From the NCBI RefSeq assembly GCF_988243305.1, contig NZ_OZ547136.1: a DNA stretch of 64,000 bases. One strand, given 5' to 3'. Position 1 is the stretch's first letter, and each line of letters opens with the position of its first letter. Position numbers: made by a program. Shown one piece after another: positions 15,901-21,900 of this stretch.

Positions 15901-18900
15901 GCAGAAGAAGGCTGTCAACAGAGAGTTCGGGTATGAATTACATAATTAAGTAACATGGTGTTCACAGAACACGCAGTTACCGGACACATCAGTTTTCCAT
16001 TCGCTCCCTGGCAGTACAGGCTTCCCCTCTGACGGGATAGCCTGAAAAAATAACACAGAAAATTATTTGTTATAATTAATATAACTTACTCAAAAAAAAG
16101 CGACGAGAAAATCAGCATCAACGAACAATAAGCGCCAATACGTGATAACAAATGGCAGCCATATTTATCTGCAGTATAAGCAATGGACAGGATAACCACA
16201 CCAGAAACCGTCAGCATAAAATCCATTTGAACTTCCCCGGACAAAATCGACTCATCTAAAGATTTACAGCTCTTTTTATTATCAATATGTTAAAAGTAAA
16301 ATAAACAGATGTTCAATAACACGAATACAAAAACGTGCTGAAATTCAATGAATCCATTTCTGTGTCATCAATTAATAGTGATAAACATCCGGCTTCTTCC
16401 ACCATCGCACCGGACAGGCGACTATGAGGGGACAACGCCGCGCTCCGTTAACGCGGTAAACCCCGGTGTGTATCGTTTTTGATTATCCCCGCACACTCGC
16501 GCAGAGGAGTCTCCCTGTCGGGCTGCGGTCTCTGTTAATGAGGGAATACAGCGACGATACGGCGCATCAACAAAACTTATTTCAGGCACTGAGTACGGAT
16601 ATATTCCTGCGCCCCTTCCAGTTGCTTGTGCATCGTCATCAGCCGCTCTCTGAGGGTGAAATAATCCCGTTCAGCGGTGTCTGCCAGTCGGGGGCCGGTT
16701 GCATTATCCACGCGGGCGGTGCCGGTGGCTTCACGCACGGGACCTGGACAGGTGGCGTTGATACGCAGGCGCTTACGACCAGCGGCAACGTCAGCGCGAA
16801 GAGTTTCATTTTCAGCTCTCGCATCGGCTAATTCCCTCGAGTATTTTGCATCGAGCGCAGCAACATCACGCTGACGCATCTGCATGTCAGTAATTGCCGC
16901 GTTCGCCAGCTTCAGTTCTCTGACATTTTTGTCGCGCTGGGCTTTGTAGGTAATGGCGTTATCACGGTAATGATTCAGCCCCAGACTAAGCGCACCACAG
17001 GCCACCAGCATGACAATAATCACCACACACAGAACACGGTTCATATCACCACCAACGGATTGCCCAGACCAGAACAGCAATGGCCACAATACGAATGGCA
17101 AATGCCATTGCCCGAATAAGTTCAGCACTCATCTTTTTAAAGTTCACGATTTCAGCGCAATGACCAGTTTTGCCAGCCCATATAGCATCGGAGACACAGC
17201 AATACCAACAGCCACCCACTTAATAGCAAAAGCCAGCGCTCTGCTGATGTCATCAGTCACTGTCACCCCAGCAGCCCCGACGAAGACAACATCACCCAGG
17301 CGAGGGACAGAAAAAGAGCAACCAGCATTAGTGAAAATGAAATACCGACAATCACACACAGGACCTTTGCCGGCGTTATGAGTTTGTCTGACATAGCTAC
17401 CCCTTAATTGCCACAATTAACTGGGATACTACCCATAAAAAAGGGATGCTCCAGACCAGCAAAAATTTCCAGTTTGGTAATTGACTAATCATGAGTCGCA
17501 ACTCCCTAATCAGTTTGCTAAAATCAATCAAGGCAGCCTCCCATAGCTTACTGCCATAAAAACAAAACCCCGCTTGCTGCCAACAAACGGGGTTTTTACT
17601 TTTATTCACTTACGTTTCGCCAGTTCGCAGGATTTCGTGTTATCCGCCCGCGTGGCCATGCCTTATTTTTCAGCAAAATATTCTGCTTATCTGTCGATAC
17701 CCCAGCACGCCAGCGCGCTCTCCTGGTCACGACGGGATACCTGACCGTAGCAGTTGTTTGAACGAATACGGCAGTCTCTGCCACCGTCCTTAATCCACCA
17801 GCGAATCGCCTCACACGCTCCCCTGCGGTCACCAGCATTCAGCCGCTTATAAAACGTCGACGGGAAACACTTACCGGGGCCAATGTTATAGGGACAGAAT
17901 GACGCTATACCCGCTTTCTGTGGTTCGGTCAGTGGAACTTTAATATTGCGCTCCACCCATGCCAGCGCCTTATCCCGTTCAATGGCATTAACCTGGTCGC
18001 ATTTTTCCTTCGACAGTTTCATGCCCGGAATAACAGGTTTACCATCCACCATTGTGGCACCGCGGCAGATGGTCCAGATACCCGCACCATCACGGTATGC
18101 CGTTGTGTGGTTACCTTCTTTTTCATCCAGAAACTGGTCGAGAATATCAGGCGCAGGCGCACCGATGGCAATCAACGCCAGAACGGCAGCCGACAGGCCA
18201 TATTTGATTTTGGTGTTCATGGATATTTATCAGGATTTATCGGTTCCGAATCCCTGGATATGTTAAATCTTCAGCCCGCCAGCGGTAGGACACTGGCGTT
18301 TTTCCTGATGGCTGAAATATATCTGACAATTTCAGTAGAGGATTAACCATGCATAACGATCAACATAATTATGATTTATGCCTGCAAGCCATAAATGAGC
18401 GGGTAAAATCAGAGTGCCTCTTACTCCTCCCACAAGAACACGATGCAGTAAAATCCATTCAGGCTGAGCCGTATGGACATCTCACACCTGTGACTCTCGG
18501 CATTATCGCCAGAGCATTAACACAGCCCATGCTTATGCGTATTAAGACCAATATAAATAACTGGTTGAATGAAGAATTAAGCTACCTTGATTGTGAGTGG
18601 GACAATCATTACGCAAAAACACAAAAAGAACGCATCTTCAGTCGATTATCCAGCAACAGATAACGAGCCACCTTATATACGCCCTTTCAGATAAGTCATC
18701 CCCGGCTGCATCCAGTCAACAGGTGCTTTCTTAAAGGGCGTATTATCAAAATCACGCAGAAGAGCCTCCAGCACAACTGCATCATTGTCAGCACCACTGG
18801 CCATCATTTCAATCTCAGCTGCTACCTGCAGATATCCCATGCAACGACCAATGCGCTTCATCAGCCCCTGCTTTTTATTGTTCTTCAGGTAATCAATGGC

Positions 18901-21900
18901 AAATTCAATGAGCGCCTCACTATGCTGGTGCGATGGCGGTGTTAATTTCCCATTTTCTGAGATGGTTATTTTCCCGCCATCTCCGTATACAACAAAGGAT
19001 GGCCGGTTACACTCCCATTCCTGATCTTTATCAGGTGCAGACGCAATAAAATAACGTTTATTTCCTTCCTCTCCGGCACTTTTAACCGTAATGGAGTACT
19101 CAGACTGCAGACAAGACGCCTCTTTTTCTGACCGCAGTGTTGACGGCGGCATCTTCAGAGAACCAGTAATTCTTCCCGGTAGCTTTCCTTTGTAGGTTAT
19201 CAACACATCCTGCGCCTCTAAAATTATGGGGCGCTTTTCCGGCGACAGCTCATCCCCTTCACATAACCCGGCAGCAACATCCAGGAAGACCTGTCTGATG
19301 CTCCTTCTGGCTGCTGCCTCATAAAACTCCAGCGCGGCACCTTCAACACGGTCCAGCGAGATGTCCAGGTCAAAAATTTCACCGTCAAAGCGTTTTTTGT
19401 CCCGTAACGCTAAAGTTACCGTAACTTTATTCTCAAAATTGCGGATCCCTTTCACAATCAGTTCATAGTTTTGAGTCATTGAATTACTCTCCCCGTGCAG
19501 CCTTACGACGGTCCTCTCTGATTTTGAAATACAGGTTAGTCAGATATGTCAGCAGCCCAAACAGCAGACTCCCCAGCACGCCTATTGCCGCCCACTGAGA
19601 CGGGGAAACCCTGTCCAGCAACTGCAGGAACCAGTAGCCCGTTCCCACCGCTGACGTGGTGTATGACACACCTGTTGTGATTTTTTCCATCTGGTACATA
19701 CCCCGTCTCCCGTTATCCGGAAGCTGACAACAATAAAAAAAGCCACCAGTTAAGTACTGATGGCTCTGATAACTCATGCAGGCATCTCAGACGACCCACT
19801 GACACTACCGGTGAGTTTAACGATACCTTCCATTTGACTGGCTCACTTTTTATGATGATGCCGGTGCATTTATCTCCAGCACCAGACTTTCTATCTCAAC
19901 GCCATACGCTGCATTTTTGGTAATATCCGTCAGCGTCAGCGCATTCAGCCCCAGTGTCAGACTGTCTTTTATGACCTGGAATGCCGGGCCAGCCACTCCA
20001 TTCAGTTTCGGAGTAACCGTGGCACTGCCGGCGGTGAACACCAGTTCCAGCGTCTGCCAGTCATTACTGTAATTCCCGAACTCGCCCAACTTTGTGTTTC
20101 CTGCTTTCTTGTGATGCATCAGATTCAGTTTGCCGTCTGTGGTCTGGGTGAAGAACGACATCAGGAACGGGTTACCAGTCCCGGCCATCGCCACGACGTC
20201 AGGTAACGCTACATCGGTATACAGATAAATTCCCAGGCCGAACTGGTTGTTGGTCAGTGCGCCTGACAGTCGAAACTTACAGCTCAGTCTGCCACCCCGT
20301 GTCAGCAGGGAGACTGCGTCATCCACCGGATGCATCAGGGACCAGGTTTTATTGCTCTGCTTGGCGATCTTAAATACACCACCCGACAACTGAATTCCGC
20401 CGTCCTTAATGGTCCAGCCCTGCGCAGCAGCCTCTCCGGCTGTCGGCAACAGGGAGATTGTGCGTACGGATGCATCTTCAGACGGCCCCGATGGCGTGTT
20501 GCCGCCGGGCGAGGGTTTGATTTCCGGTGCCTTACCACTGATGAAAGCTGAGGTGCGCCCGGCTGCGTTCAGAATAGCGGTTGCCATACGATCCGGAATA
20601 ATGCTCCTGCGCGCCCATGAACTGAAATGTGTCGGGCGGTTTGATGATACCTGGTTTCCATTCGTTCTCGATGCCGCACCGTAATATCCTGATGCCGGAA
20701 TATCCGGATCTTCTGCCGGTGCGTTAGTGGCGGTATTGACGCCGTTACCGTCTGTCATGAAGGGCACAAAATAAACGCCCTCACTCTCCCTGTTTTTATA
20801 CCCGCCGTACACGGTGTCGTACTGGGTAGCGTATGTATTTTTCCAGTAATACGTCGTGTCACCACAAATCCACGGCACATTTACAGCACTACCACCATGA
20901 CACTGCGCGTTAAACACAGTGAGGTCAGCACGAAACTGCTTCAGCATGGCTGTAAACAGCGCAGGTTGCTGTGCGTAGGTGGCGGCGTTCATGTCAAACT
21001 CTCCCTGCATCCAGCACACCGCCAGCAACACATTTTTCGGGTTCTTCTGTAATGCAGCTTTAGTGCGCGCAATCAGGTCCTGATATAACGGTTTACCCAC
21101 ACCCCAGCGTGCCGAATCCTGGCTGGCCCCCGCGTCCGCACTGAATGTCCCCTCCGCGCCCTTGGTGAATGCCGAACCACCACGACAGCATGGTACCAGC
21201 AGGATCCCCGCGTTATTCGGGATATACGGGAGCAGTTTTTTGGCAATATGTAAGCCCTGGCCGACACAGCCGTACTGCCCTTTGCTCAGGTCTGCCTTCG
21301 GATGATTCAGCGTACTCATATCCTGCACATCATGCAGACAGTGGTCAGCCGGGATGATGTCGTTATACGTACAACTCTCTCCACCCGGAGTTACCGTGCT
21401 GCGGCGCGCCAGCTGTTTAATGCGCGGATCCGGAGCATCGTAAGAATCCGGTAACGGAAGCCCTTCACCGTAGGCCATGCCGTTGGACTGTCCGGCAAGC
21501 ACAACCACGTAGAACCAGTCCGGCTCAGATGAAGGGCCGACCTGTGGATCTCCTTCAATAGCCACCGCCTGCATCAGTGTGTACGGCGTAATGGCAACCG
21601 GTCCGCCATATGGCTGCCAGCCCTCTTTCAGTTTGTGTGTCAGCTTTTCCGCAAGGTCTGACGGCGACGCCGCCCTGACAACATCATAGTGTTTAAATGC
21701 CATGAATCCTCCCGGCCGGGATAATATTGTGAGTAAAATGAGGAGCGGGCTGAAGTCCGGAAGTTACAGGACAATGGCAGAAGAGAGACAATAGCCCGCA
21801 ATACGAAAAAGGCCGCGCTATTGCGCAGAGTGATTACTGTCAGATATTATTCGCCAGCTGAAATATTACTTCACGTTTTGTTGTTTATTCCTTGCCGCCC

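Follow-up and report, generated by a model that had tools for sequence, protein, structure and literature searches.

The lysis cassette analysed here belongs to a lambdoid prophage in a 64,000-nucleotide stretch of contig NZ_OZ547136.1 (NCBI RefSeq assembly GCF_988243305.1), referred to below as the window, where the prophage late genes lie on the minus strand. Between the holin gene S and the lysozyme gene R of this cassette stand two open reading frames (ORFs), one of 268 residues, here called ydfR-long, and one of 104 residues on the opposite strand (Table 1). Compared with Stx phages of the VT2-Sakai type, this phage-21-type lysis cassette has about 1.25 kb of additional, accessory DNA. 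The insertion holds two independent units, of the kind termed moron and reverse moron, which travel as a conserved pair, and neither needs the other for maintenance. An initial annotation of the window had presented the two genes as an unrecognised orphan pair. The locus is instead an uncharacterised accessory pair that is real but not new: it is already annotated in Stx2 phage 86 and is of the same type as convergent pairs in phages HK97 and HK022.

The gene pair at the holin–lysozyme junction

Phage 86 (NC_008464) carries the same pair as gp05 and gp06 (orf5 and orf6), in the same order of esterase, S, 268-residue gene, 104-residue gene on the opposite strand, and R. The 104-residue protein and the C-terminal 144 residues of the 268-residue protein are 100% identical to those of the window (tblastn), the DNA is 97.8% identical, and there is no material difference between the two loci. 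The phage record annotates gp05 at its full 268 residues as a ‘YdfR family protein’ and gp06 as hypothetical. An equivalent pair is present in prophages of Escherichia coli O104:H4 and strain 55989, where the chromosomal RefSeq records shorten the large gene to a ‘partial pseudogene’.

Both ORFs were found at the positions and on the strands first given for them, and homologues, PHROG matches and ratios of nonsynonymous to synonymous substitution (dN/dS) support them as real genes. They lie tail-to-tail with a gap of 9 bp. The ATG of ydfR-long is 4 nt past the S stop codon (GGAGAG TAA TTCA ATG), not 2 nt as originally described, but the proposed coupling and the GGAGAG Shine–Dalgarno (SD) sequence upstream hold up: ydfR-long is translationally coupled to S, with S the source of the coupling. 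Since ydfR-long is co-oriented with S and starts so close to it, it forms part of the late transcript. The smaller gene is convergent with it and, as had been noticed, has an SD of its own, GAGGA, 6 nt ahead of its ATG; an in-frame TAA directly upstream of that ATG fixes the gene start. Guanine-plus-cytosine (GC) content is 41% in the 104-residue gene and 47% in ydfR-long, against 53–55% in S, R, Rz and the esterase gene. Both proteins are soluble and mildly acidic, and their homologues keep their length.

The flanking genes are those of a conventional cassette. In locus L001, which is 99.4% identical to the window, PGAP annotates the 216-nt S gene as ‘class II holin family protein’, and the Pfam entry Phage_holin_2_1 is recorded on S homologues. 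Lysozyme R, which has a hydrophobic N-terminal stretch (maximum Kyte–Doolittle (KD) value 1.88), is divergent from the 104-residue gene and is the downstream neighbour in the late operon. The initial annotation had assumed that R directly follows S in cassettes of this type. That is so in VT2-Sakai and many other Stx phages, where S and R are contiguous, and comparison of S–R junctions with these phages bears out the insertion. It is not general: the K-12 Qin prophage (NC_000913) has the order essQ-ydfR-rrrQ, with ydfR (b1555) in the same holin–lysozyme position, and insertions between S and R are common, not exceptional.

Table 1. Positions of the lysis-cassette genes, their domains and the leader elements in the window
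Feature	Position	Strand	Basis or remark
SASA/NanS-p-type esterase	19850-21703	-	late gene, first in cassette order listed
Class II (S21-type) holin S, 71 aa, MYQM dual start	19484..19699	-	PHROG phrog_9876 and phrog_20
ydfR-long, 268 aa, soluble late protein	18673..19479	-	ORF; phrog_1085, E 9e-147
DUF1327 (YdfR) domain, aa 1-100	19180..19479	-	Pfam PF07041, E 1.5e-40, model positions 1-88 of 93
C-terminal domain, ~aa 156-268	18676..19014	-	beta-hairpin then helices; conserved core in alignments
Reverse-moron cargo gene, 104 aa, soluble, five-helix (phrog_1853 family)	18349..18663	+	ORF; E 8e-50
Promoter-like element and structured 5' leader of reverse moron	18252..18348	+	conserved motif, covariation, covariance model
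CCCTGG	18252-18257	+	
-10-like TATGTT	18259-18264	+	
Leader start UCAGCC (P1 5' arm)	18271-18276	+	
Hairpin P2	18277-18298	+	
GGCUGA (P1 3' arm)	18310-18315	+	
Alternative stem	18312-18318 with 18329-18335	+	
SD GAGGA	18338-18342	+	
Lysozyme R, SAR (signal-anchor-release)-like N-terminus	17687..18220	-	PHROG endolysin phrog_7, E 1.5e-63; PGAP ‘lysozyme’
Rz/Rz1	16577-17128	-	late operon

The view that both proteins fall outside known families proved wrong for the larger one, which matches DUF1327 (YdfR) with high significance (Table 1). In YdfR-long a variable linker joins this N-terminal domain to a C-terminal one that is conserved. Its residues 1–74 are 81% identical and 96% similar to residues 1–74 of K-12 YdfR; the latter protein has only 103 residues, diverges after residue 74, and is without the linker and the C-terminal domain. 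The K-12 locus also differs in having no reverse gene and no match to the leader described below. Beyond DUF1327, no match was found in the PDB, NCBIfam, PADLOC or Pfam, the Pfam search covering 15 diverse family members. YdfR-long has no transmembrane segment (maximum KD 0.87). Both PHROG families concerned, phrog_1085 and phrog_1853, are of unknown function. For the 104-residue protein an AlphaFold2 model of five helices was obtained with good confidence (pLDDT, the predicted local distance difference test, 88.7; predicted template modelling score, pTM, 0.82), and fold searches with it returned solely uncharacterised E. coli and Salmonella proteins as structural relatives.

The C-terminal 160 residues of YdfR-long represent a second family, also found as standalone proteins of 213–217 residues with an N-terminal coiled coil and, in Salmonella, in proteins of 165–190 residues. 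Its core reads H.(R)D.II...LGRxMG(Y/L)LQVAAEIE...DFDN(P/T)PFK..W..PG..YLK.R. A hidden Markov model search of 1.84 billion representative proteins returned 41 relatives only; two of them, P0143 and P0157, are spurious repeat proteins, and the remainder are short and of the same type, a DUF1327-like N-terminal domain being present in most. The divergent relatives P0122, P0123, P0126, P0127, P0129 and P0133 combine a DUF1327-like domain, a coiled-coil linker (LEERVAxLEKRL) and the core in the form H.RD.II...LGRxMGLLQVAAEIEA...DFDNPPFK..W..PG..YLK.R. Because this long two-domain architecture recurs in the most divergent relatives, it appears to be the family norm and K-12 YdfR a short variant. A Cys-His enzyme was considered on account of the GRCMGYLQ motif of the C-terminal domain and dropped, the cysteine being replaced by serine, alanine or valine in distant members.

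RefSeq presents a different picture of the gene. The PGAP gene call ends after the first 112 codons and bears the label ‘YdfR family protein, incomplete, missing C-terminus’; the C-terminal half has no annotation. The window nevertheless has an intact ORF, as does the large majority of the fetched pair loci, and the pairwise dN/dS values (0.3–0.5 for ydfR-long and 0.14–0.37 for the 104-residue gene) indicate purifying selection on both genes. The pseudogene label is thus an annotation artefact, as the intact ORFs and the selection pattern show, and the pseudogene status that the initial annotation had named as a way for its proposal to fail was not found. Further intact genes of 268–297 residues shortened in this way are present in L001 (7074-7880), L003 (2574-3380) and L026 (1800-2693), and the shortening probably affects many of the 786 genomes, among 5426 complete E. 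coli genomes, that contain DNA for the C-terminal domain.

The pairing itself is consistent. In all 47 loci with enough flanking sequence around the small gene, a convergent ORF with the C-terminal domain lies 2–33 bp away; this partner has from 186 to 376 residues, with or without a DUF1327 domain. The 104-residue gene was found in 94 of the 5426 genomes and the full 2.3-kb region in 70, including O104:H4 outbreak isolates and strain 55989. The pair also extends to Salmonella-type prophages, in which a YdfR-long of 266–297 residues (about 32% identical to that of the window) accompanies a small-protein homologue of 105–111 residues (40–42% identical). There it lies between Q and the holin gene and not between S and R. 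Since the pair is kept at this other site, the linkage is old and survives relocation.

In three of the Salmonella-type loci, L008, L021 and L024, the module in the Q-to-holin region sits beside HicAB or ParE-type toxin–antitoxin genes and a DUF4406 gene. The module on the late strand is followed by a clean intrinsic terminator in L024 (~4235-4262).

The linkage is not exclusive. The same C-terminal domain occurs with other reverse genes, encoding a 95-residue protein (phrog_10490), an 86-residue protein (phrog_2572) or a DUF1883 protein, or with none. Identities of the two window-type proteins correlate overall (r = 0.88), a correlation driven by the split between E. coli and Salmonella; among E. 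coli sequences alone, the identity patterns show partial discordance between the two genes. Co-evolution as a sign of specific interaction was rejected on these grounds, and the discordance means that a specific protein–protein partnership is not required. Together with the varied or absent reverse genes, it argues against an obligate toxin–antidote pair. The earlier picture of a late-expressed gene with an independent partner therefore survives in part: ydfR-long is co-oriented with S, a conserved promoter-like element and leader precede the small gene (see below), and the pair recurs in 47 of 47 loci, but the partnership is not obligate, with 786 genomes on one side and 94 on the other. The comparison of junctions likewise showed that the pair was already on record and is not confined to the S–R position.

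The structured leader and the reverse-moron cassettes

An alignment of upstream regions revealed a shared element ahead of the reverse genes, whatever ORF lies behind it: a -10-like TAnnnT, six nucleotides, UCAGCC and an 8-bp GC-rich hairpin. Of 57 loci, 42 contain a single copy of the pattern TAnnnT-N6-TCAGCCCGYCAG, among them all those with the 104-, 105- or 111-residue gene, except for the L018–L020 and L055 variants, plus the DUF1883 loci L008, L009 and L021. Its transcribed part would be a leader made up, in order, of UCAGCC, the 8-bp hairpin, GGGAUGGCUGAUUACCUCU and the SD. In the IMG/VR database an exact-pattern scan found the hairpin pattern in 32 loci, and a scan with the exact 19-nt second motif, GGGAUGGCUG.U.AC(C/U)UCU, found at least 120. 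All 32 leaders from the first scan are 77–82 nt long and end in an SD and a start codon; those from the second scan are similar.

According to RNAfold, the 5'-terminal UCAGCC pairs with the conserved GGCUGA to form a helix, P1, that encloses the hairpin, P2; in this model the first nucleotides of the leader are base-paired. Covariation was assessed on P2, the 3' arm of P1 being fixed by the search pattern. Among 41 distinct leaders, six of the eight P2 pairs show compensatory changes, with 49 double-change cells against 11±3 in shuffled data (0/500), and many G.U pairs in the leader fit the cargo-sense strand only. Two other explanations of the upstream hairpin were rejected. An intrinsic terminator does not fit, a U-run following the hairpin in the E. 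coli 104-residue type only, nor does a protein operator, given a loop that ranges from 4 to 7 nt and G.U pairs that fit cargo-sense RNA alone. On these grounds we read the hairpin as part of a 5' leader. The leader may resemble CsrA GGA sites and the 16S anti-SD sequence.

Rfam yielded no match at E-values up to 1 in positions 17600-19900 of the window and no relevant match in seven loci with typical leaders. A covariance model was built from 41 other leaders, none of them of the window type and one of them that of HK022. Searched against the whole window it gave a single match, at 18271-18325(+), with 34.3 bits and an E-value of about 1e-5. It scored the HK97 leader at 42.9 bits and also matched leaders of other reverse genes, while L026, K-12 Qin, L011 and L023, all of which are without a reverse gene, gave no match. 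The window-type leader is a diverged variant, in which GGCUGA can pair with the 5' end or, alternatively, with AUUUCAG further downstream; the latter fold would also occlude the SD.

The same leader stands ahead of at least 27 unrelated small ORFs. Among the matches listed, 118 cassettes hold ORFs of 23 BLAST-unrelated families, mostly of 63–99 residues, to which the 104-residue, 95-residue, 86-residue and DUF1883 families are additional. In the nine loci that were mapped, the cassettes are reverse-oriented with respect to the surrounding late genes and occupy the S–R junction, the Q–holin region or positions between tail genes. Of 100 distinct cases, again among the matches listed, 56 have a small late-strand ORF directly adjoining or overlapping the cargo at its 3' end. 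Of these abutting ORFs, 32 begin MTLEQRVEALE..., a coiled-coil motif as in the YdfR-long linker (LEERVAxLEKRL); they have 58–119 residues, are variable past the coiled coil and belong in many instances to tail-region cassettes (L067-L206, for example L067, L110 and L153). Another six are DUF1327-like by a crude motif test, and the remaining 18 include the HK97 gp22 family (phrog_11851). An hhalign comparison of a gp22-like set with DUF1327 (probability 48%, E 2e-4) is no more than suggestive of a distant relationship between the two.

The 95-residue alternative cargo (L004, 4902-5189, minus strand) is found in the S–R junctions of several E. coli prophage loci, L004–L007, one of them beside stx genes. 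Its match to the PADLOC candidate PDC-S51 is weak and partial (E 2.6e-5, 60 of 376 profile positions).

BLAST searches with the leader against cultured phages found it in HK97 (NC_002167, ~14975-15072, minus strand), HK022 (NC_002166, ~13972-14067, minus strand), several mEp phages, ES18 and other Salmonella phages; the leader loci overall are L058–L206. In HK97 this leader is followed by gp23, annotated ‘reverse moron product’; it and gp22, ‘moron product’, converge in the interval from tail gene I to tail gene J. HK022 carries their counterparts, gp22 and gp23 (srb), with the same leader family. The moron/reverse-moron kind was defined in the comparison of these two phages (Juhala et al. 2000, as cited in PMC3594210). 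As in the window, a convergent pair of small accessory genes is placed between late genes that in related phages are direct neighbours. The pairs differ in site, the I–J tail junction as against the S–R lysis junction, in their unrelated cargo proteins, and in the forward gene, which is much larger in the window and has an extra C-terminal domain. The window pair is thus a member of the moron/reverse-moron kind that is sited in a lysis cassette and has a long YdfR as its forward gene. In the searched literature we found neither a function for reverse morons nor an account of the shared leader.

Possible roles of the pair

The RNase E link is the only functional lead for the YdfR family. A 2026 study reported, from two-hybrid and pull-down experiments, that residues 1–72 of K-12 YdfR bind the catalytic N-terminal half of RNase E (Rne 1–597); the protein co-purified with RNA, and its over-production altered few transcripts (PMC13232886). 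Judging from the 81% identity over this region, RNase E binding may be carried over to the N-terminal domain of the window protein.

Building on this, we favour a combined reading in which a late YdfR-long acts on host RNA via RNase E and sits beside an independently transcribed reverse cargo gene. We give this reading a probability of roughly 0.55, the identity of the genes being much firmer than the mechanism. The late promoter would drive ydfR-long together with S, R and Rz. The N-terminal domain of the protein would dock on the catalytic half of RNase E in the way reported for K-12 YdfR, so that late in infection YdfR-long could influence how RNA is processed or how stable it is. The 104-residue gene would be the cargo of a reverse cassette with its own weak sigma-70-like -10, transcribed independently of Q and most likely from the repressed prophage. 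After induction, colliding late transcription would silence it. In the first 1 kb or so past the small gene no terminator-like site was found, so that its transcript probably continues, in antisense, into the ydfR-long 3' end.

There are precedents for such accessory genes. The morons bor of lambda and gp15 of HK97 are reported to be expressed from the prophage via promoters of their own, and HK97 gp15 acts from the prophage in superinfection exclusion (PMC3594210). Like the window genes they were inserted into late operons as accessory DNA of deviating GC content, but they have no sequence relationship to them, and their products are membrane or envelope proteins whereas those of the window are soluble. 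STnc6030 of the Salmonella prophage BTP1 is a lysogen-expressed antisense RNA inside the late genes that excludes kin phage via their late mRNA (PMC7067206). It is non-coding, with no ORF of more than 60 residues, whereas the reverse unit of the window encodes a protein under purifying selection, and no sequence similarity was found between the two. HK97 gp15 and STnc6030 are accordingly functional precedents, not relatives.

Several observations weigh against the combined reading. The RNase E interaction comes from one study, of a truncated K-12 homologue under over-expression, in which few transcripts changed (PMC13232886). AlphaFold2 gave no usable structure for the 268-residue protein (pLDDT 46) from an alignment in which the coiled coils of standalone homologues were placed against the DUF1327 domain, and no relatives of the C-terminal domain were found in Pfam, NCBIfam, the PDB or PADLOC. 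A consensus scan detected no sigma-70 promoter ahead of the small gene; the proposed -10 is weak, with only the TAnnnT positions kept. No transcriptome data for the locus were found in the searched literature. Finally, the C-terminal domain is present in 786 genomes against 94 with the small gene, the identities of the two genes are partly discordant within E. coli, and the commonest arrangement examined, as in L026, is S, an intact 297-residue YdfR-long and R with no reverse gene.

Among the alternatives, a conflict module is one that we regard as unlikely. YdfR-long would here be a late toxic or host-takeover effector, and the 104-residue protein, made in the lysogen, would neutralise leaky or incoming copies, giving superinfection exclusion, or would itself serve defence or anti-defence. 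The convergent pair kept across genera, the low GC content and the hypervariable cargo ORFs behind a shared leader, a pattern typical of arms-race genes, would all suit such a role, as would the example of HK97 gp15 and other characterised morons that are exclusion proteins (PMC3594210) and the weak partial match of the 95-residue cargo to PDC-S51 (E 2.6e-5). Searches of PADLOC-DB v2, however, gave no match at E-values up to 1 for either window protein and none for their relatives; the C-terminal domain occurs with different reverse genes or none, so that a cognate antidote is not required; and the cysteine of GRCMG is not conserved in distant members, which argues against a cysteine enzyme. 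K-12 YdfR, moreover, was not among the proteins that arrested growth when over-produced, and few transcripts changed (PMC13232886). The toxin and anti-defence roles proposed at the outset find no support in these results, and neither does the third proposal, lysis timing.

For that third proposal YdfR-long would be a cytoplasmic, antiholin-like regulator of the pinholin or of the SAR endolysin, with the 104-residue protein as its antagonist. Soluble lysis regulators encoded beside holins are exemplified by LydB of P1 and RIII of T4. A class II holin gene neighbours YdfR-long in every context examined, whether S-ydfR-R in E. coli or ydfR...holin in Salmonella-type prophages, and the translational coupling to S points the same way. 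Most 21-type cassettes, such as those of VT2-Sakai-type Stx phages, nevertheless function without ydfR-long, whose product has neither a transmembrane segment nor any holin-like feature. In Salmonella-type prophages it occupies a general Q–holin moron region beside HicAB or ParE modules. Leader cassettes, about half of them abutted by a coiled-coil or DUF1327-like late-strand ORF, also lie between I and J or other tail genes, far from the lysis genes, which argues against a lysis-specific role. On balance we consider the lysis-timing explanation improbable.

A slimmer chance still attaches to an adaptor function, in which the YdfR-like late protein and the leader would form a matched protein–RNA pair that, in the manner of RapZ, hands the reverse-moron mRNA to RNase E. 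The late protein, through DUF1327 and/or the LEQRVEALE coiled coil, would recognise the leader, the paired 5' end of which would otherwise shield it from RNase E. A lysogen-specific cargo would in this way be off when the late genes are on, and the cargo ORF would be freely exchangeable; this would explain why a conserved leader and partner stand beside a hypervariable cargo. Decay or artefact, with the 268-residue ORF a degenerate YdfR pseudogene (PGAP annotating only its first 112 codons, as incomplete) and the 104-residue ORF a matter of chance, is very improbable indeed in view of the intact ORF in the window and most fetched pair loci, dN/dS well below 1 for both genes, the long architecture in the most divergent relatives (it is the 103-residue K-12 protein that diverges after residue 74), the full 268 residues annotated in the phage 86 record, and a 104-residue protein that folds confidently and has same-length homologues at 40% identity.

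Surrounding features and significance of the locus

Other parts of the cassette are also variable or noteworthy. The region of about 560 bp between the lysozyme gene and Rz (17129-17686, minus strand) contains small ORFs, including a hydrophobic one of 43 residues at 17263-17394; PGAP calls three small hypothetical proteins in this gap in L001. Phage 86 has an antirepressor gene (ant) at the same R–Rz site, which marks it as another variable slot in the lysis cassette. Between the esterase gene and S, just upstream of the holin start, is a strong terminator-like hairpin (19739-19767, minus strand; 12 pairs followed by a U-run), so that late transcription would need Q antitermination to pass.

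Three tRNA genes lie upstream of the esterase gene (22193-22438, minus strand): Arg-tct, Arg-tcg and one with a CAT anticodon, which PGAP assigns to Ile in the near-identical locus. The arrangement matches the Q-to-S region of Stx-type prophages; in the near-identical L001, the annotation shows no stx genes in the interval from the Q-type antiterminator to the lysis genes. Further upstream of the tRNAs, on the opposite strand, a 380-residue ORF (23204-24346, plus strand) is probably a prophage-borne porin, by analogy with related prophage regions in which an OmpC-type porin is annotated at this position.

The locus is an ordinary accessory insertion that was already in the databases, and it reveals no new lysis-cassette function. 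What it draws attention to is, first, a conserved late gene, ydfR-long, that roughly one complete E. coli genome in seven carries, those of the O104:H4 outbreak lineage among them, and that RefSeq annotation systematically shortens to a pseudogene. Second, for the combination of a conserved leader with hypervariable cargo, absent from Rfam, we found no description in the searched literature. The reverse-oriented cassettes behind this leader are widespread in temperate enterobacterial phages, and the covariance model provides a handle for finding reverse morons. Third, the RNase E lead maps to the part of YdfR-long that is 81% conserved, and is thereby testable on the full-length, natural version of the protein.

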